A DNA stretch of 27,045 bases, taken from positions 1 through 27,045 of the forward strand of contig JANOQV010000172.1 in assembly GCA_031414955.1 (NCBI GenBank). The letters are read 5' to 3'. The stretch comes from Pedosphaera sp. Lineage in GTDB: Bacteria; Verrucomicrobiota; Verrucomicrobiia; Limisphaerales; SIBH01. A program made the position numbers and the translations under genes. Shown piece by piece: positions 1 through 7,223 of this stretch (its first letter is position 1; every line of letters starts with the position of its first letter). Under the pieces are notes generated by a model that made no database searches, was not told the DNA's origin, and worked only from the letters and a program-made list of their open reading frames with translations.

Positions 1-2549
1 TCGCGGTGCAAATGGCACGCGCCCCGGCCGCCGAGTGAGCAATAAGGCTCAGACTCCCGCTCCAGTTGCGCGAGCCGCGACATGGAGTCGTAAAGACCGG
101 CGTCACGAGCGCGCAGGTCGGCAAAGCGACCTTCTTCCAGCAGCATCCGGCTTTGGGGATCGAGCAGAAACGCGACGAAGACCGTCCGCAGTTCCCGACT
201 GTGCGTCGCGTTGGTTTCCTGCGTGGCGACGAATCTTTCAAACGCTTCATCCGCAAGCTGACTCCGCGTCGAAATCTCGCTAGTCAATCCGAACACGCGG
301 GCGAGGATTTCCCGCAAGCTCGGCAGGCGATCGGATTTGTAAACCTCCTGGAGCTTCGGGAGATTCCAGAACTCTTGCGGCTTCTCGAATAGCAGACGAC
401 GGACGCGCTCCTCGACGGCGGGCCAGTCTTCATCGTCGTAAGCCTGGCGTAGCACGGCGTCAGCGGCGACGGCTTCACTGGCCTGTTGCGCGAAACGCAC
501 GCGATACATCTCGCGGTCAATCCGCATCCCAAAAAGACCGATCTCTTCGCGGATGACCTCTGCCATCGGGTCAGGCGAGGTATTCGTGAAATCTTCGAGA
601 CGGATGCCACCCTCACCACCACCACCGCCTTCTTCCGGCGGGCCTTTGGGCAAAGTCAGCTTTTGGTCGTAATCGAAATCCTTCTCGAAGTATTCGCAGT
701 TGGCGAAGAAGTCGAAGAGCGCGAAGCCATCTTTCTTGGCCGTGCGCTGGCTTGCGCCTTCGCCGTGCTTGAAGGTGTAGAGCCGCGTGCCGCGACCTTT
801 GATTTGGATGAAGTCGGTCGGGGAGAAAATCGGACGTGTCAGTGCCACGTTCAGCAGGTCTTCGCAATCGTAGCCGGTGGTCATCATGCCGACGGTCACG
901 CAGACGCGCGTCCGGCTGGTGTCGTAATCGCGAAACTCGTCTGCTCGCCACTTGGATTTGCCGTTGAGGTTGTTATTGGCGAAATCAATCGTCATCTGCT
1001 GCGCGCCGGGAATGTTCGACGTGACCTGCACCGCAAACGTCGAACCGGCGGCGTATTCCTTCGGCCAGCGGCGCGTCGCCTCCTCGTTGAGCAGCGTCAC
1101 CAGCTTGGTGGCGTGCTTGCGGCTGACGGCGAACATGGTCGTCTTGCCAGGTTCGCCTGTGATGGGGTCGCACTTGGCGTTTTCGAGGAAGCAGCGGACG
1201 AAGCTCAGGTTGGTTTCATCTGAGAAAAACTTCCGCTCGTAGTCGCGCTTGCCGAAGGTCACTTCGGTTTCCTGCCCGTCCTCATTGGGCGGCAGCGTCA
1301 CCGCGTAGCCCTCGTCCGAAAGCATCTGCGTGGTGATGTCCGTGCGGGCATCGAGTGCGACGGGATTGCAGAGATACGGCGGGACGTGCTGAACGGCCTT
1401 GAGCAGGCTGTAGCTAAAAGTGGGCTTGCCGTCGTCACTGCCGAACGTCTGATAAGTATCGAGCAACAACCGCCGCTCGTATTCGCGCGGATCGTTCTGC
1501 CGCGCCGCATCATCCAGGCCTTTGAGATAATCACGCGGCGTGGCGGTGAGGCCGAGCTTCGCGCCCACGAAATACTCGAAGATGGCCCGGTTGTTTCCGC
1601 TGATGGTGCGGTGCGCTTCGTCGCTGATGATGAGCTGAAAATCCGTCGGGGCGAACTCGTGCAGGAAACGGTTGCGGGCGGCGAGGCTTTGAATCGTCGT
1701 CACCACCACCTGTGCCTGCATCCAATCCCGGCGCTTCTGTTTGTAGATGACGGTCTGAATGCCGTCGTTGGCGAGGTAGGCGTTGAAATTCTTCCACGCC
1801 TGATTCTCCAGCTCCAACCGGTCCACGAGAAACAGGATGCGCGTGGCGTTCTCGGTGCGGAGATACAGCTTGGCGATGGCCGCGCTCAACAGCGTCTTGC
1901 CCGTGCCCGTCGCCATCTCAAACAGAAACCGATGCAGCGAGGGTGAAGCAGCCTTTTGCAGCGCCCGCATCGCCTCGACCTGATAATCCCGCAGCAGGCG
2001 GATTTTCTTGTTCACCATCACAGTCGCGCGATCAGCGGAGGAATACGAAAGCCATGCGGCATCTTGCGACACGGCGATGTAATTCTCATCCACCTTCACG
2101 GCGGCGAGGCGCGCGGCATCAGGCCGCCACTCCGCCGCCTGGCCCAGTTGTTCCAAGGGCAGGAAGCGCGACACCTTCACCGGATTGCCCTGCCGCAGAT
2201 TCCAGTAGTAATGCACCAGCCCGTTGCTCAGGAAAATGTGGCTGACTCCGAGGCTCTCCGCGTAGGCGCGCGCCTGCTCCTTGCCGGTGAGCGGGTCAAT
2301 GCCTTCGCGCTTGGCCTCCGTGACCGCTACCGGGCGCTGGTCGGTATTCAGGTGGACGTAATCCACGAAGCCGTTCGGCGCGTGCTCAAAATCCTTGCCC
2401 AAATCCTGACTGGGGGAAAAGGCCCGCCGCGTGACGCGATGCTCGCAGATGATGTTTTCGCGCCGCCCCTGCGCATCCGGAAGAAACCGCCAGCCCGCCT
2501 CCTCCAGCATCTTGTTGATCGTGATGCGCGCTTGGGCTTCGGAAGGCAT
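1..2549 (-). CDS. hsdR: Type I restriction enzyme R subunit, partial (no stop codon within the window)
   Basis: Hand-translated from ATG 2549 (MPSEAQARITINKMLEEAGWR). It has the nuclease motif FVDY...VTEAKR, Walker A MATGTGKTL, ISDEAHR and motif VI IQIKGRGTR. The ORF track misses it because the frame runs off the edge. Confidence 0.93.
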   Translation of the reverse strand, partial: MPSEAQARITINKMLEEAGWRFLPDAQGRRENIICEHRVTRRAFSPSQDLGKDFEHAPNGFVDYVHLNTDQRPVAVTEAKREGIDPLTGKEQARAYAESLGVSHIFLSNGLVHYYWNLRQGNPVKVSRFLPLEQLGQAAEWRPDAARLAAVKVDENYIAVSQDAAWLSYSSADRATVMVNKKIRLLRDYQVEAMRALQKAASPSLHRFLFEMATGTGKTLLSAAIAKLYLRTENATRILFLVDRLELENQAWKNFNAYLANDGIQTVIYKQKRRDWMQAQVVVTTIQSLAARNRFLHEFAPTDFQLIISDEAHRTISGNNRAIFEYFVGAKLGLTATPRDYLKGLDDAARQNDPREYERRLLLDTYQTFGSDDGKPTFSYSLLKAVQHVPPYLCNPVALDARTDITTQMLSDEGYAVTLPPNEDGQETEVTFGKRDYERKFFSDETNLSFVRCFLENAKCDPITGEPGKTTMFAVSRKHATKLVTLLNEEATRRWPKEYAAGSTFAVQVTSNIPGAQQMTIDFANNNLNGKSKWRADEFRDYDTSRTRVCVTVGMMTTGYDCEDLLNVALTRPIFSPTDFIQIKGRGTRLYTFKHGEGASQRTAKKDGFALFDFFANCEYFEKDFDYDQKLTLPKGPPEEGGGGGEGGIRLEDFTNTSPDPMAEVIREEIGLFGMRIDREMYRVRFAQQASEAVAADAVLRQAYDDEDWPAVEERVRRLLFEKPQEFWNLPKLQEVYKSDRLPSLREILARVFGLTSEISTRSQLADEAFERFVATQETNATHSRELRTVFVAFLLDPQSRMLLEEGRFADLRARDAGLYDSMSRLAQLERESEPYCSLGGRGACHLHR

Positions 2550-2561
2550 GGTGTGGGGAAA

Positions 2562-3071
2562 TTACGACTGCGTGCTGTCTCCGTCAGTCAAACCTTCAGT
2601 GAAATCACGCTGGCCGCCGTTGAAAAATGCGCGGTCGAAACCGTCCGCCAGCTTGATGGCTTTGAACGCCACCTTTCCTGCTGTTTTGAATGTCTCGCAG
2701 TAGCGGTAAAAGGATTCCGAGTCATCCGTGATGACATACTCCGCATCAATGCGTGCGGCTTGCGCGATGATTTTGATGTCATCCTTCAAGGCATCGCGCT
2801 CCACACCGGGCGGACGCAATGGTTTCCAATCCAGCGCGGCGACGCGCAGGGCGTCATCCCAATTGAACGGCAGCACCACGCAGCAACGAAGGATTTGCGG
2901 GTCAATCTCCTGCTTCACGCAAAATTCCGAAACCACGATGGTCGAGAGATACATCGGGATTTGGTTCTCGGTGAAATGCCGCCAGTAACGGCGGGCCGCC
3001 TCATGATGCGCCCGGTGGCTGCCCGCCAGCGTGATCAGAAAACTCGTGTCCAGCAAAACTCCGGCCGCCAT
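2562..3071 (-). CDS. PIN-domain (VapC-like) ribonuclease, 169 aa
   Basis: The acidic PIN pattern is present: LLDTSFL, STIVVSEF, ALKDDIKIIAQA, YVITDD. It ends 12 nt before the hsdR start. Confidence 0.85.
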   Translation of the reverse strand: MAAGVLLDTSFLITLAGSHRAHHEAARRYWRHFTENQIPMYLSTIVVSEFCVKQEIDPQILRCCVVLPFNWDDALRVAALDWKPLRPPGVERDALKDDIKIIAQAARIDAEYVITDDSESFYRYCETFKTAGKVAFKAIKLADGFDRAFFNGGQRDFTEGLTDGDSTQS

Positions 3072-3074
3072 GCG

Positions 3075-3851
3075 TCAGTCTCCCCTCGCTTCCCTGACCC
3101 ACTTGGCCGCGTCCGGCACGTCCGCCCAAGCTTTCGCGCCCTTGGCGGCAAACCGGTCCAGCGCCGCCTCGTCATAACCCGGTTGATAATCCATGAAGGA
3201 AATCAAATGGACGTTCCGCAACTCGCCCGTCTTGTAATGCTGCTCGGCGCGAACGTGCAGCAGCGCCTTGTGATAAAGCCGGTTTTCCAATTGATCACGC
3301 AGGTAGCCTTGGGCCGCACCCACCAGCAGCGTCCGGCCTCCACGATCCAGCTTGAGGTGGATGTTGGCCTTTTGCACGCCGCCCATGTCGGTGATCTCGC
3401 CGAAGAGGTATTTCTCCACCGCTACCCACGGGATGATTTCGCCGACGCGGTAATCCGTCTCACGGCTGATGCGCACTTTGGCAATTCCCTCGCCTCCAGG
3501 CCGGACCTCGTAATTCAACTCCGGATTGCTTTTCGCCCGCGCCTGCCACTTCTGCACCACTTCCGCCCGCTTGATGTCCAGTTCGCCCAGCACATCCTGC
3601 CGGGACATCAGCTTCAAATCCGGTTCCAGGCTGGACAGCACCAAAGCCGGCAGCAAGGCGCGCAGCACGTAGGAACTCTTCGCAATCTCGACGTGGACTT
3701 GATCCAGTTTCAGCTTTTGGCTCCCGCCGATGAAGGTCTCGACCTGCTGGTTGAACTCATTGAACTGCGAGAGGCCGATGGTGCGCGGGGTAATCTCCTG
3801 CCCCTCCACCTTGCCGTGAAGCACAAACTCAATGGCGGTGTTTTCGTTCAT
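3075..3851 (-). CDS. Uncharacterised 258-aa protein coupled to the PIN gene (candidate antitoxin/sensor)
   Basis: Clean ORF starting MNENTAIEF. ATG 3851 is preferred over TTG 3899 because of the duplicated start context at 4036-4045. Its stop lies 3 nt before the PIN ATG. Confidence 0.85.
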   Translation of the reverse strand: MNENTAIEFVLHGKVEGQEITPRTIGLSQFNEFNQQVETFIGGSQKLKLDQVHVEIAKSSYVLRALLPALVLSSLEPDLKLMSRQDVLGELDIKRAEVVQKWQARAKSNPELNYEVRPGGEGIAKVRISRETDYRVGEIIPWVAVEKYLFGEITDMGGVQKANIHLKLDRGGRTLLVGAAQGYLRDQLENRLYHKALLHVRAEQHYKTGELRNVHLISFMDYQPGYDEAALDRFAAKGAKAWADVPDAAKWVREARGD

Positions 3852-3923
3852 GGCCTGCTTGATGGCGGCAACATACGCTATGCCCAAGCGCTTGGGCAAG
3901 CGTAGCGCAGTCCGGTTGGGATG

Positions 3924-4030
3924 GGAGCGCGGGCTTCAGCCCGCTTCAACTTCCGCCACGCCCGCCGCGCAGGGATTATTCCGATGCTTGCTCTCGTTCG
4001 GACGGTGAAGCGGCCTGAAGGCCGCGCTCC
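3924..4030. repeat. REP doublet (REPIN-like), GGAG-type family B
   Basis: GGAGCGCGGGCTTCAGCCCGCTTCA (3924-3948) and TGAAGCGGCCTGAAGGCCGCGCTCC (4006-4030) are 25-nt inverted repeats, each with its own internal hairpin. Confidence 0.85.
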
Positions 4031-4038
4031 GAGGGCGT

Positions 4039-4203
4039 TCATGGCGTGGCCTCCGGGGTGTTGCCCCAGACGCGGTCGAGGACGCGTTGGATTTTGGCCT
4101 CGAAACGGGGGAGCAGCGCACGCACCGAATCCATCTGCGCCGCCTCCGCGTCCAGCTCCGCCACGAGACGACGTTGCTCCGTCAGAGGCGGCAGGGGGAT
4201 TTC
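4039..4203 (-). pseudogene. hsdS: Orphan C-terminal conserved region of HsdS
   Basis: Reads EIPLPPLTEQRRLVAELDAE...RFEAKIQRVLDRVWG...stop. No TRD or credible start precedes it, and it abuts the REP unit at 4221. Confidence 0.85.
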
Positions 4204-4220
4204 GCACGCGCCGCGCCGGT

Positions 4221-4310
4221 AGGGCCAAAGGCCCGCCGCCATCCCAGCCTGGGCCAACGGCCCAGGTCTCGTGGAAAACAAAATCATCAGGGCTGAAAGC
4301 CCGTCCCATC
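4221..4310 (+). repeat. Three-hairpin REP unit 1 (family A)
   Basis: AGGGCCAAAGGCCCG..ATCCCAGCCTGGGCCAACGGCCCAGG..AGGGCTGAAAGCCCG..CCATC. Confidence 0.9.
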
Positions 4311-4312
4311 GT

Positions 4313-4765
4313 TCAATCCCACACATAAGCTTCGTCGTATTCCACGCCGTATTTTTTCAGGAACATCCGAAATTCATCCTGGAACGTCCGCGTTTTGTGA
4401 TGCTCCTCTTGGCCGTCAATGTAGGCGCGCAGGGAATCCAAATCCGCCGGGCCGACGGAAAAACATCCGTAGCCACGTTGCCACGAGAAGTCGGCGAGGC
4501 CCGGGGATTGCGTCTTCACCCATTTCGACGAGGACGTTTTCAACGTCTCCACCAAATCCGCGATGGTGATGGTGCGCGACAATCGGATGGCAAGGTGAAC
4601 ATGGTCCGCCACGCCGCCGACGCGATACGCCTCGCATCCCGCGTTGCGCGCCACGGTGGCGAGATACGCGTGGAGTTTCGGGCGCGTGTCCGGGTCGAGG
4701 AATGGGCGGCGTTCCTTCGTGCTGAAGATGACGTGGACGATGACGAGGCTCAATGATTGTGGCAT
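4313..4765 (-). CDS. tnpA: IS200/IS605-family HUH (Y1) transposase, REP-associated, 150 aa
   Basis: Motifs HVIFSTKER, HUH (DHVHL), WQRGY and catalytic YxxxQ (YIDGQEEHH). No tnpB is adjacent. Confidence 0.93.
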   Translation of the reverse strand: MPQSLSLVIVHVIFSTKERRPFLDPDTRPKLHAYLATVARNAGCEAYRVGGVADHVHLAIRLSRTITIADLVETLKTSSSKWVKTQSPGLADFSWQRGYGCFSVGPADLDSLRAYIDGQEEHHKTRTFQDEFRMFLKKYGVEYDEAYVWD

Positions 4766-4779
4766 GGCGATGTTCGGTT

Positions 4780-5009
4780 AGGGCCAACGGCCCGATTGAT
4801 TCCAGCCTGGGGCAACGCCCCAGGAAATCGGCAAACAAATTTGTCCCCAGCGCCAACGGCGCGGTTCACCGGGCCGGACGAATGATTGCGGTTGCGGTTT
4901 TGTTGGCATGTTCGCGGTTTGATGGGTCGGGCTTTCAGCCCTCATATTGTTTTCGGCCTTTGACCTGGGGCGTTGCCCCAGGCTGGGATGGCGATGCGCC
5001 GTTGGCGCT
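4780..5009. repeat. Inverted doublet of family A REP units 2 (+) and 3 (-)
   Basis: Core CCAGCCTGGGGCAACGCCCCAGG at 4802-4824 and its reverse complement at 4964-4986, each with flanking small hairpins. Confidence 0.9.
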
Positions 5010-7223
5010 TTCGGAGTCGCCGTTCCAGACGGCGTCAATCGTCGTCTGGATGCGTTCGCGGTCGGCGGCGATTTCGGATTCCAAGCGGGCAATCTCGTTC
5101 TGGTAGCCCTCGATTTCCGCCACGATGCGCCGCTGTTCCTCCAGCGGTGGCAGCGGGATTTCGAGTTGTTTGAGTGCGTTCGCATTGAATTGTGGCTGTC
5201 CGCCGCCAGAAACCAATTGGTCACGCTGCTGCCAATACTGTTTCGACTGCGCGAAGCACCAGTAGAACTCCGGCAGCACCTTTTCCGGGTCGAAGCGAAT
5301 CCGAATGAGATATGAAGCGAAGACTGCTGGCTCATCAGAGTCGAAAAGAAGCGTCTTACCCGCCGTCGCGCCAATTCGGGCAACGAGGATGTCGCCTTTG
5401 CACGCCAGACAAGCCTTCGCTTCCTTGTCGAGTTTGATGAATTTTGCATCGCCGGGGCGAAGCCGACCGAACTCGTTGATGTCCGTGATGCGAACGTAAC
5501 GAATGTCTCCTTCGTCGGCTGCGGTCGCCGTGTGTCCGTATTCAAATGTGGCGACATCACCCAAGGAAACCGTTTCGACTTCTGTGGATGTTGAACCGTT
5601 TCCGAGAAACGCCTCGGCTTGCAGGCTGACGGAGGGCATTTCGAGCAGCGCCTTTTTCTCCACACGCTTCCACACCACGCCAGCGCCAACGGCGCTGCCC
5701 ATCCCAGCCTGGGGCAACGCCCCAGGTGCGTCGTTCAAAAACATTTCCGAGGGCTGAAGGCCCGATCCATCGGCGGCGGATTGTTTGTCGCGGTGGGATG
5801 GGGCGGGCCGTTGGCCCTTCAATTGGTTTTGGGGATTCGTTTCCTGGGGCGTTGCCCCAGGCTGGGATAATGCCGCGCCTTTGGCGCTCAACGTCGGGCC
5901 GTTGGCCCTGCAATCCGCGCCGCCATTCGTCATTCGGAATTCGCCATTCGTCATTTGGAATTCGCCATTCGTCATTTGCTTGAGCCACGCCTTCACCACG
6001 CGCTCCGCTTCCGGCAGGTCGTTCGCCTCGATGGGATTTCGTTTGTCGCCGAGGTCGAAGCCGTCGGCGGTGATTTTGAGTAAGAGGATTTCCTTGGTCT
6101 GCCGCGCGAGTTTTTTGTCGAGCAGGAGGATGCTGGTCTTCACGCCGGAGTAGGGCTTGAACACGCCCGCCGGGAGCGAGACGACGGCCACGAGCGAGTC
6201 CTCGACGAGGAAGCGGCGCAGTTTCACGTAGGCGTTCTGCGTGGTGGCCACGATGCCGTTGGGCACGATGACGCCGCCGCGCCCGTCGCCGCTTAGGTGC
6301 TCGGCGATGTAGTCGGTGAAGAGCACCTCGGCCTTCTTCGCGGCGATGCGGAATTTGGTGTGCGGGGTGACGCCGCCTTTCGGGGTCATGAACGGCGGGT
6401 TGGCGAGGATGAGGTCGGCCTTCTCGTGCCAGCGGGCGTCGTTGCTCAGGGTGTCGTAGATATGGATGGCGGGGTCGGGAAAGCCGTGGAGGAAGAGGTT
6501 CACCTTGCTCAGCTTCACCATCTGATCGTCCACGTCGTAGCCGGCGAGGTTGCCATAGACCTTCTGGCGCTGGGCGTGGGTGAGTTTGTCGCCGGGCATG
6601 GTCGAGCCGGGCGAGGTGCTGTGCGCGAGGATGTGCCGGTAGGCGGAGACGAGGAAGCCGCCCGTGCCGCACGCGGGGTCGAGGATTTTGTCGCCCGGCT
6701 GCGGGTCGAGGCAAGCGACGATGAAATCAATGATGTGGCGCGGGGTGCGGAACTGGCCGTTCTCGCCCTGCGCGCCGGTGCATTGCAGGAGGTATTCAAA
6801 GGCGTTGCCGAGTTCCTCGCTGTGCGAGTAGGCGAAGCCGTTCACCTCGGTGAGGAACATGGTGAGGATGCGGCCGTCGCGGAATTTCAGGAAGGCGTTG
6901 CGGAAGATGTCGCGGAACAGGCCCGGCAGGTGCGCGGCTTTCTTCGCGTGACCGAGGGCTTCGACGCCCTCGGAAAAGAGCGTGACGCGTTCGTCGGCGG
7001 AGACGGTCTGCGGGAGGAGATTGCGCCAGCGGTATCTCGCCAACTCGCCGGTGAAGAAGCTGCGTTTGCCGCCGAGCTTCACGGATTCCTCATCAAGGTC
7101 GTCCATGAATTTGTAGATCAGCGCGAGGGTGATGAGTTCGACCTGATTGGACGGCTGCGGGAGTTTGCCGACGAGGACGTCGCGGCAGTTATCAATGCGG
7201 CGTTTGGTTTCGGAGTTGAGCAT
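4935..7223 (-). CDS. hsdM: Fused type I HsdM (N6-adenine MTase)-HsdS with a single TRD, 762 aa, carrying an in-frame repeat-derived insert
   Basis: Motifs GQFRTPRHI, ILDPACGTGGFL and LANPPF, then a TRD (YVRITDI..GDILVARIG..FASYLIRIR) and EIPLPPLEEQRRIVAEIEGYQ. The stop codon lies within REP unit 3. Confidence 0.92.
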   Translation of the reverse strand: MLNSETKRRIDNCRDVLVGKLPQPSNQVELITLALIYKFMDDLDEESVKLGGKRSFFTGELARYRWRNLLPQTVSADERVTLFSEGVEALGHAKKAAHLPGLFRDIFRNAFLKFRDGRILTMFLTEVNGFAYSHSEELGNAFEYLLQCTGAQGENGQFRTPRHIIDFIVACLDPQPGDKILDPACGTGGFLVSAYRHILAHSTSPGSTMPGDKLTHAQRQKVYGNLAGYDVDDQMVKLSKVNLFLHGFPDPAIHIYDTLSNDARWHEKADLILANPPFMTPKGGVTPHTKFRIAAKKAEVLFTDYIAEHLSGDGRGGVIVPNGIVATTQNAYVKLRRFLVEDSLVAVVSLPAGVFKPYSGVKTSILLLDKKLARQTKEILLLKITADGFDLGDKRNPIEANDLPEAERVVKAWLKQMTNGEFQMTNGEFRMTNGGADCRANGPTLSAKGAALSQPGATPQETNPQNQLKGQRPAPSHRDKQSAADGSGLQPSEMFLNDAPGALPQAGMGSAVGAGVVWKRVEKKALLEMPSVSLQAEAFLGNGSTSTEVETVSLGDVATFEYGHTATAADEGDIRYVRITDINEFGRLRPGDAKFIKLDKEAKACLACKGDILVARIGATAGKTLLFDSDEPAVFASYLIRIRFDPEKVLPEFYWCFAQSKQYWQQRDQLVSGGGQPQFNANALKQLEIPLPPLEEQRRIVAEIEGYQNEIARLESEIAADRERIQTTIDAVWNGDSESANGASPSQPGATPQVKGRKQYEG
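5682..5909. repeat. Inverted doublet of family A REP units 4 (+) and 5 (-), plus one extra hairpin, in frame within hsdM-S
   Basis: ATCCCAGCCTGGGGCAACGCCCCAGG at 5701-5726 and its reverse complement at 5843-5868. Confidence 0.9.
5921..5976. repeat. Heptamer tandem repeat (8 x 7 nt, 21-nt superperiod) within hsdM-S
   Basis: cgccatt cgtcatt cggaatt cgccatt cgtcatt tggaatt cgccatt cgtcatt; it encodes MTNGEFQ MTNGEFR MTNG. Confidence 0.9.

Follow-up and report, generated by a model that had tools for sequence, protein, structure and literature searches.

What brings a gene for a PIN-family nuclease and a gene for a protein of 258 amino acids together between the hsdS and hsdR genes of a type I restriction-modification (RM) operon, and does this pair depend on the restriction system in which it resides? 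The question is raised by a 27,045-nt stretch of Pedosphaera sp. DNA (JANOQV010000172.1), the whole of which is called the window below; positions given without a locus name refer to it, and both the pair and the restriction genes lie on its minus strand. The gap is also the place of the anticodon nuclease PrrC, which, according to the passages of PMC12707154 that deal with it, sits between hsdS and hsdR and fires when a phage inhibits restriction, in agreement with the account of slot and trigger given in the initial annotation, where the pair had been put forward as a candidate RM guard or abortive-infection system. From our point of view, the pair is a real, conserved and so far uncatalogued PIN-based module with a new partner architecture, and its preference for RM systems is striking but not obligate. 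Its several hundred homologues have no family name and no PADLOC entry and bear only the label 'hypothetical protein', and in type I operons the pair holds the slot of PrrC down to 39% identity. If the pair indeed defends against phages, the ferredoxin-like domain, oligonucleotide/oligosaccharide-binding (OB) fold and C-terminal tail of the 258-residue protein (hereafter the partner) would represent a new partner architecture for PIN-based immunity, and the locus would offer a tractable case for finding out whether cargo lodged between hsdS and hsdR works together with restriction or is only sheltered there.

The two genes are tightly coupled and form an obligate pair. In loci collected through the partner, a PIN gene comes next in 18 of 20 genome loci of full length and in 66 of the 73 metagenome loci that are informative. 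The partner gene is the first of the two, and 55 of 58 distinct loci have a gap of -8 to +6 nt between them; in the window, the spacing of 3 nt between the genes (TGAcgcATG) and of 12 nt from the PIN stop codon to the hsdR ATG at 2549 had been read correctly from the outset. Profile searches of 401 genomes of the phylum detected a PIN of the pair's family in 16 and the partner in 18, and a class sample added six further genomes with the PIN. In the PIN-profile search, which is free of bias toward the partner, a partner homologue lay directly upstream in all 21 informative genomes (two very divergent partners among them being recognised only by direct inspection) and one more locus was cut at the contig start, and PIN-only loci were absent from these 21 genomes. 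The two-gene module proposed from the window is therefore a conserved unit, whose homologues co-occur.

The two members differ in how they decay. Among 99 loci, which were found with the partner as query and hence give a biased count, 69 have an intact PIN gene and 12 a degraded one, 9 lack it, and in the other 9 it is cut or lies at an edge. Where the PIN is degraded or absent (21 loci), 13 loci retain a partner that is full-length or truncated only by the contig end (L008, L010, L014, L022, L026, L033, L034, L040, L042, L048, L064, L090 and L095), and the loci L076, L080, L087, L088, L093 and L101 have a partner that is itself deleted, frameshifted or partial. The reverse case, an intact PIN next to a damaged partner, occurred at a single locus (L100), where the partner is internally deleted but has kept its tail. 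Such an asymmetry fits a toxin that is held by an antitoxin.

Individual loci illustrate the range of arrangements. At L022 (8001-8830) the partner stands alone directly before hsdR and the PIN is cleanly missing, at L033 (118-1208; L033/L034) it stands alone directly behind an N-terminal fragment of hsdR, and L070 carries two copies of the pair on one contig (1507-2714 and 4473-5764), both about 58% identical to the query and the first with a shortened PIN.

No catalogue that we searched contains the pair. In PADLOC-DB 2.0.0, including its PDC and HEC sets, neither protein of the window (P0001, P0002) finds a family at E <= 0.1, and four more partner and five more PIN sequences find none at E <= 0.001, so that the earlier impression of a pair belonging to no named defence system extends to the named and candidate models of this collection alike. 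A literature search likewise returned no description of the pair, and none of the searched terms occurs in 10.64898/2025.12.08.692795. In L003 and L035 the pair is immediately preceded by PDC-M19A, a DUF488 protein; the partner matches no PADLOC model and hence not that of PDC-M19B, an OB-fold protein.

The second gene of the pair encodes a predicted Mg-dependent ribonuclease effector. The protein, for which 952 homologues were found, matches PF01850 with 33.9 bits (cutoff 23.6), and an alignment of 16 homologues shows D8, E49, D97/D98, D117 and a PFNWDDA motif at residues 68-74 to be invariant; the acidic residues, said to look intact in the window, are thus conserved throughout this set. Since the family is of the VapC type, the enzyme is predicted to act on RNA. 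A sequence search against solved structures gave no significant match (best E 0.48).

The partner is the more unusual of the two proteins. It has 354 homologues, which are mostly 258 residues long and align from M1, for which reason the ATG at 3851 is favoured as its start; a TTG at 3899 was considered as an alternative and is disfavoured by the same homologue length and M1 alignment. Searches of Pfam, NCBIfam, PHROGs and PADLOC gave no match for it, none of 24 family members tested has a significant Pfam match, and among solved structures a sequence search found nothing significant (best E 0.8). Predicted models and the alignment divide it into a ferredoxin-like domain (residues ~1-131), an OB fold (~140-225) and a conserved tail (~238-257). 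The full-length model reached a mean predicted local distance difference test score (pLDDT) of 74 and a predicted template modelling score (pTM) of 0.52, and the N-terminal 135 residues modelled alone reached 86 and 0.83. The predicted N-domain is a ferredoxin-like alpha+beta fold for which a Foldseek search gave no match below E 0.07 and VIA-align returned generic ferredoxin-like rows only (best Z 6.8, next <= 5.3), and we therefore claim no specific relative for it. Residues 140-225 are predicted to resemble the OB folds of single-stranded-DNA-binding proteins (SSBs), PriB, ExoVII and MCM (VIA Z 6.0-7.4; Foldseek best E 2.8e-3), which bears out the OB-like, beta-rich body suspected in the initial annotation. 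The suspected tail peptide, AWADVPDAAKWVREARG, is real as well and lies at the C-terminus. Its motif, G-x-x-AWADVPDxxxWVRExRG, is the most conserved segment of the partner family, being kept at 35-40% overall identity and also in a homologue from Bordetella (see below), and the last ~30 residues are modelled with a pLDDT near 50; a segment that is strongly conserved and yet modelled with little confidence shows the pattern to be expected of a partner-binding tail. Among ESM Atlas clusters the nearest named one was DUF6575 (0.75), a weak lead that was dropped, the other clusters being unnamed, and an apparent 697-residue fusion of HsdS and partner (P0243) turned out to be a frameshifted read-through and not a genuine fusion.

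Short variants of the partner without a PIN also exist (L105 3906-4403, L108 ~1893-2399, L104 1919-2143, L106 1904-2155 and L107 1619-2077). They come in two forms, one of ~165 residues consisting of the OB fold and the tail, and a mini form of 75-84 residues in which only the first strand and the tail are retained. Two of the OB-plus-tail genes stand behind the defence genes IetA-IetS, which encode an AAA ATPase and a subtilase.

What could such a pair do? We tentatively favour, at close to an even chance, an autonomous cassette of the toxin-antitoxin or abortive-infection kind that is not a guard in the manner of PrrC. The PIN would be its nuclease effector and act on RNA, and the partner would likely keep it inactive, while binding nucleic acid through its OB and ferredoxin-like domains. 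The conserved tail, modelled with low confidence, may dock on the PIN and block it; phage infection or loss of the cassette would then free the PIN, cellular RNA would be cut and growth would stop. The restriction operon might in this scheme serve as a favoured landing site and functional neighbour without being a required physical partner.

The resemblance to VapBC systems is considerable. The pair, too, has a PIN domain of PF01850 with conserved acidic residues, its partner gene lies upstream with the PIN within a few bases, it has a promoter-like element of its own and a patchy, mobile distribution, and the partner carries a conserved C-terminal segment where VapB has its toxin-binding tail. 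In contrast to VapB, with its about 70-90 residues, the partner has 258 and, as had been pointed out for the window, far exceeds it in size; it lacks an AbrB, RHH, HTH or PhD domain and has the predicted ferredoxin-like and OB folds instead, and the PIN differs by an extra C-terminal extension of ~45 residues and by the invariant PFNWDDA motif.

Several observations weigh against a toxin-antitoxin-like cassette. The partner is unlike any known antitoxin, given its length and its lack of a DNA-binding antitoxin domain, and the matches of its folds are middling (OB Z 6-7.4; Foldseek E 3e-3). The genomes G035, G301 and G377 hold short tail-bearing variants of the partner, and no PIN of the pair's family was found in them; a tail that is kept where the PIN is missing may bind something other than the PIN. 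The asymmetry of decay comes from loci collected through the partner, with the bias mentioned above. Finally, in what PMC13092281 reports on it, the validated PIN pair DS-5 is not a toxin-antitoxin system and needs its partner for defence.

The DS-5 precedent leads to a reading in which the roles are reversed and the partner is a required sensor or activator that would detect a nucleic acid or protein of the phage and switch on a PIN which is inert by itself. DS-5, identified by DefensePredictor, combines a PIN ribonuclease, whose catalytic residues are needed for defence, with a DUF5830/AcrIF4-like partner, and, as far as its description in PMC13092281 goes, shares with our pair the two-gene make-up and a larger partner that is no classical antitoxin, thereby setting an example of a PIN pair outside the toxin-antitoxin systems. 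That our partner is large and has two domains with predicted folds of the nucleic-acid-binding type would suit a sensor, and an OB-plus-tail module behind IetA-IetS without a PIN is what one would expect if the sensor module were reusable. However, an inert PIN should tolerate PIN-only loci, which are lacking in the 21 informative genomes, and the PIN often decays beside a full-length partner; this comparative pattern, with a PIN that is never alone and often decayed, leans to inhibition by the partner and sets the pair apart from DS-5. In addition, sequence profiles find neither DUF5830 nor any other Pfam match (E <= 5) in 24 members of the partner family. An activating partner is hence unlikely in our view, although it deserves to be kept in mind.

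How close, then, is the tie to restriction? The position between hsdS and hsdR, which had been claimed for this locus, is seen in the window, and across the neighbourhoods of its homologues the pair is strongly enriched in restriction operons, far above chance. Context labels were assigned by hand from neighbour surveys of the loci, in which genes were called by a home-made frame method based on third-codon-position GC content (GC3) that can miss small or atypical neighbours. In a tree of the partner with 81 rows and 67 distinct sequences (near-identical loci from different samples are separate rows, and partial partner genes of <240 residues or with stops were omitted), 44 of the 75 labelled rows are RM-linked and 31 have no RM gene beside the pair. 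The RM labels are scattered over the tree, and for the non-RM label at least nine changes are forced by well-supported branches. A less biased set of 21 species genomes comprises 6 RM-linked loci and 15 without an RM neighbour; five of the pairs lie in type I loci, one beside Mrr, two beside prophage genes, ten among ordinary genes and three beside other defence-like genes (SIR2_2, Schlafen AlbA_2).

At RM-linked loci the usual order is hsdS-pair-hsdR; hsdR follows immediately in 9 of the 21 genome loci, the window counted, and in 23 of 67 informative metagenome loci, three more being at contig edges. This order is kept in relatives of only 39-45% identity (L094, L098 and L099). Two unrelated hsdR families are found beside the pair, one ResIII/EcoAI-like and one HSDR_N/SWI2_SNF2/T1RH-like_C, and pairs that are 79-82% identical to each other occur with either of them. 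The pair further precedes type III-like mod/res genes in L049/L092, L067 and L044, precedes hsdM in L030/31 and follows an Mrr-type gene in G282.

One could imagine on this basis that the pair works as PrrC does, being kept latent by the type I complex and firing when an anti-restriction protein of a phage disables that complex. A predicted RNA-directed nuclease gene would then occupy the same hsdS-hsdR slot as in the type IC locus EcoprrI (and as with RloC), the slot being that of prrC in the account of PMC12707154. The frequency with which hsdR follows directly, the persistence of the arrangement in the three distant relatives and the scatter of RM linkage over the whole family tree all agree with a guard; yet nearly identical pairs accompany both hsdR families as well as type III-like mod-res genes, and a large share of the labelled loci and most of the species genomes have no RM neighbour. 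An obligate guard role is not supported, given that pairs of 57-82% identity are also located in prophage regions, among housekeeping genes and beside type III-like or Mrr-type genes.

PrrC unites an ABC-ATPase-like N-domain and an anticodon-nuclease C-domain in one polypeptide. The pair, in contrast, consists of two genes with a promoter-like element of their own; it accompanies two hsdR families and type III-like systems, frequently stands where restriction genes are lacking altogether, and resembles neither PrrC nor RloC in sequence or domains (Pfam, NCBIfam, PADLOC). Other cargo of the hsdS-hsdR gap in these loci includes HEC-01, PDC-M19A, PDC-S02, PDC-S15, SoFic, DUF3800 and YhcG, and with so many unrelated systems in the gap, position alone is weak evidence. 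A guard of the PrrC kind therefore seems rather improbable to us, and the enrichment agrees with a landing site that defence cargo favours and is no proof of functional coupling.

Of these cargo genes, HEC-01, PDC-M19A, PDC-S02, PDC-S15, SoFic and DUF3800 lie at L003 502-3481, L035 2916-5157 and 7054-7854, L079 807-1724, L085 2175-2813 and L007 9423-10424; HEC-01 is represented by A and B, PDC-M19A (DUF488) by a gene without a recognisable B, and PDC-S15 by an FRG gene. In one group of genomes the pair is located directly downstream of mutS (L009, L016/L075, L043 and L055), with a classical small PIN gene between mutS and the pair in L016 and a TIR-domain gene following in L055.

PIN genes in restriction operons have been noticed before. 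In the part of Matelska et al. (2017; PMC5499597) that concerns them, PIN-like genes are found to share operons with hsdM, hsdS and hsdR, in some cases with no antitoxin that can be recognised, and such arrangements are described as poorly conserved between related species, whereas the present pair is conserved in the same slot down to 39% identity. One could also speculate that the partner is a new kind of sensor for nucleic acids or DNA mimics and that the pair provides a second line of immunity matched to several RM types. The signal would come from restriction that is under way or blocked, such as ends of single-stranded DNA or RNA or a DNA mimic like Ocr or ArdA, and would be caught by the OB and ferredoxin-like domains, upon which the PIN would be released, and a shared promoter would tie the supply of HsdR to the same switch. 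We consider this quite unlikely, about as much so as a guard.

Is the pair, then, wired into the operon by its expression, as the initial annotation had it? There, positions 3855-4045 were regarded as an insert whose removal makes the hsdS stop overlap the partner ATG, and the pair was taken to have been translationally coupled to hsdS. The arithmetic is right, as removing these 191 nt yields ATGA, and a 10-nt direct repeat, GCCATGAACG, is present at 4045-4036 and 3854-3845, but only ~3906-4038 consists of DNA resembling repetitive extragenic palindromes (REP). This REP-like DNA has 37 further matches in its own genome, many at contig ends, shows a contig depth of 25-450x compared with ~11x in the flanks, and is absent from the relatives L050, L051 and L011. 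The portion from 3855 to ~3905 is no insert; it is a promoter-like region that is found before the partner gene in relatives from all contexts. Because this conserved element lies within the proposed insert and relatives without the REP DNA keep a spacer of 55-95 nt between hsdS and the partner gene, translational coupling to hsdS is unsupported.

The promoter-like element travels with the pair, in RM and non-RM contexts alike. Of the 63 distinct upstream regions, 47 contain a motif TTGNNN-N16-19-TANNNT that ends 12-26 nt before the partner ATG, namely 25 of the 35 RM-linked regions, 20 of the 24 with another context and 2 of the 4 without a label; 200 shuffles gave a mean count of 0.7 and a maximum of 3. 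In the window it consists of a -35 hexamer TTGCCC (3899-3894), an 18-nt spacer and a -10 hexamer TATGTT (3875-3870), 18 nt from the ATG. A consensus promoter scan of 2300-4400 returned 0 sites, the window hexamers matching the consensus at 8 of 12 positions only, and it is the conservation across loci on which we base the designation. The -35 hexamer and the spacer are overlapped by a 7-2-7 palindrome, GCCCAAGCGCTTGGGC (3897-3882), a possible operator; relatives carry different GC-rich sequences at this position. An own promoter-like element is what one would expect of an autonomous cassette, and it speaks against a guard of the PrrC kind.

On the downstream side of the pair, hsdR begins 12 nt after the PIN gene in the window and typically 12-80 nt after it in relatives, and hsdR is therefore probably co-transcribed from the promoter of the pair. 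The conserved element and the short distance to hsdR together suggest that cargo can take over the transcription of hsdR, which would affect the regulation of such restriction systems. Co-transcription with hsdR would also suit a helper in DNA processing, in which the OB protein would bind single-stranded DNA ends after cleavage by HsdR and the PIN, as a DNA nuclease, would degrade them, and the OB matches are indeed mostly with proteins that bind single-stranded DNA (SSB, PriB, ExoVII OB, MCM OB). The PIN, however, belongs to the VapC-type PF01850 and not to the FEN-like families, the pair often occurs without any restriction gene, and the frequent decay of the PIN fits a costly toxin better, which makes such a helper very improbable.

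The distribution of the pair is patchy, with 18 carriers among the 401 genomes of the phylum, and mobile. A pair of 33.7% identity (L114 3326-4591) is carried by the phage-like 39-kb plasmid pA of Bordetella bronchiseptica (NZ_CP132331.1), which also bears a YqaJ recombinase gene and many small open reading frames (ORFs) and on which RefSeq labels both homologues 'hypothetical protein'. In 50,697 phage records no match to the pair was found, and IMG/VR held one locus only, on a 24,801-base contig like that of L078. The presence on this plasmid and beside prophage genes, the patchy distribution and the toxin-antitoxin-like anatomy could all mean that the pair is a plain addiction module, whose post-segregational killing would only stabilise mobile DNA such as RM islands, prophages and plasmids, with no role against phages. 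However, the enrichment is specific to restriction and defence neighbourhoods and does not extend to mobile elements generally, and the near absence from phage and viral records argues in the same direction, so that we hold mere addiction to be improbable.

The features of the window are collected in Table 1. Read along the minus strand, the hsdM-hsdS fusion is followed by a Y1 transposase, the hsdS remnant, the REP-like repeats, the partner gene, the PIN gene and hsdR, and the remainder of the window is made up of housekeeping genes.

Table 1. Features of the restriction locus and of the inserted gene pair in the window.
Feature	Position	Strand	Basis or remark
hsdR (ResIII / EcoAI-like type I restriction subunit)	3..2549	-	ATG at 2549; truncated at contig end
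PIN-domain nuclease, 169 aa, predicted effector/toxin	2562..3071	-	Pfam PF01850
258-aa partner protein, starts ATG	3075..3851	-	ORF, translation and homologue alignment
Promoter-like element of the pair	3870..3899	-	Motif conserved across loci
REP-like repeated DNA, between hsdS remnant and promoter-like element of the pair	3906..4038		Genomic repeats, contig depth
hsdS remnant ORF	4039..4326	-	Translation; tblastn to relatives
IS200-like Y1 transposase (RAYT-like), inserted in hsdS region	4313..4765	-	Pfam Y1_Tnp, 88.9 bits
hsdM-hsdS fusion, type I system (N6_Mtase and one Methylase_S domain)	4935..7223	-	Pfam; PADLOC MTase_I / Specificity_I

The hsdR gene is recognised by Pfam ResIII (123 bits), HSDR_N_2 and EcoEI_R_C, by PADLOC REase_I and by NCBIfam restrict_EcoAI. 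In the hsdS remnant ORF only the last ~53 residues (EIPLPPLTEQRR...) correspond to the conserved C-terminal part of hsdS; the second target-recognition domain (TRD) is missing, whereas the protein P0243 of a relative shows the full HsdS with two TRDs. The transposase and the REP-like repeats take the place of this second domain in the window. The Y1 arrangement of the window recurs in L003 and L004, and in several type I loci that carry the pair and are unrelated to one another (L003, L004, L007, L029 and L063), related or other Y1 transposases are found amid the hsdM/hsdS genes. Lastly, the linker between the hsdM and hsdS parts of the fusion (~5590-5950, residues ~425-545) contains tandem MTNGEF repeats as well as stretches that resemble translated REP elements (…GALPQAGMG…), apparently in frame.

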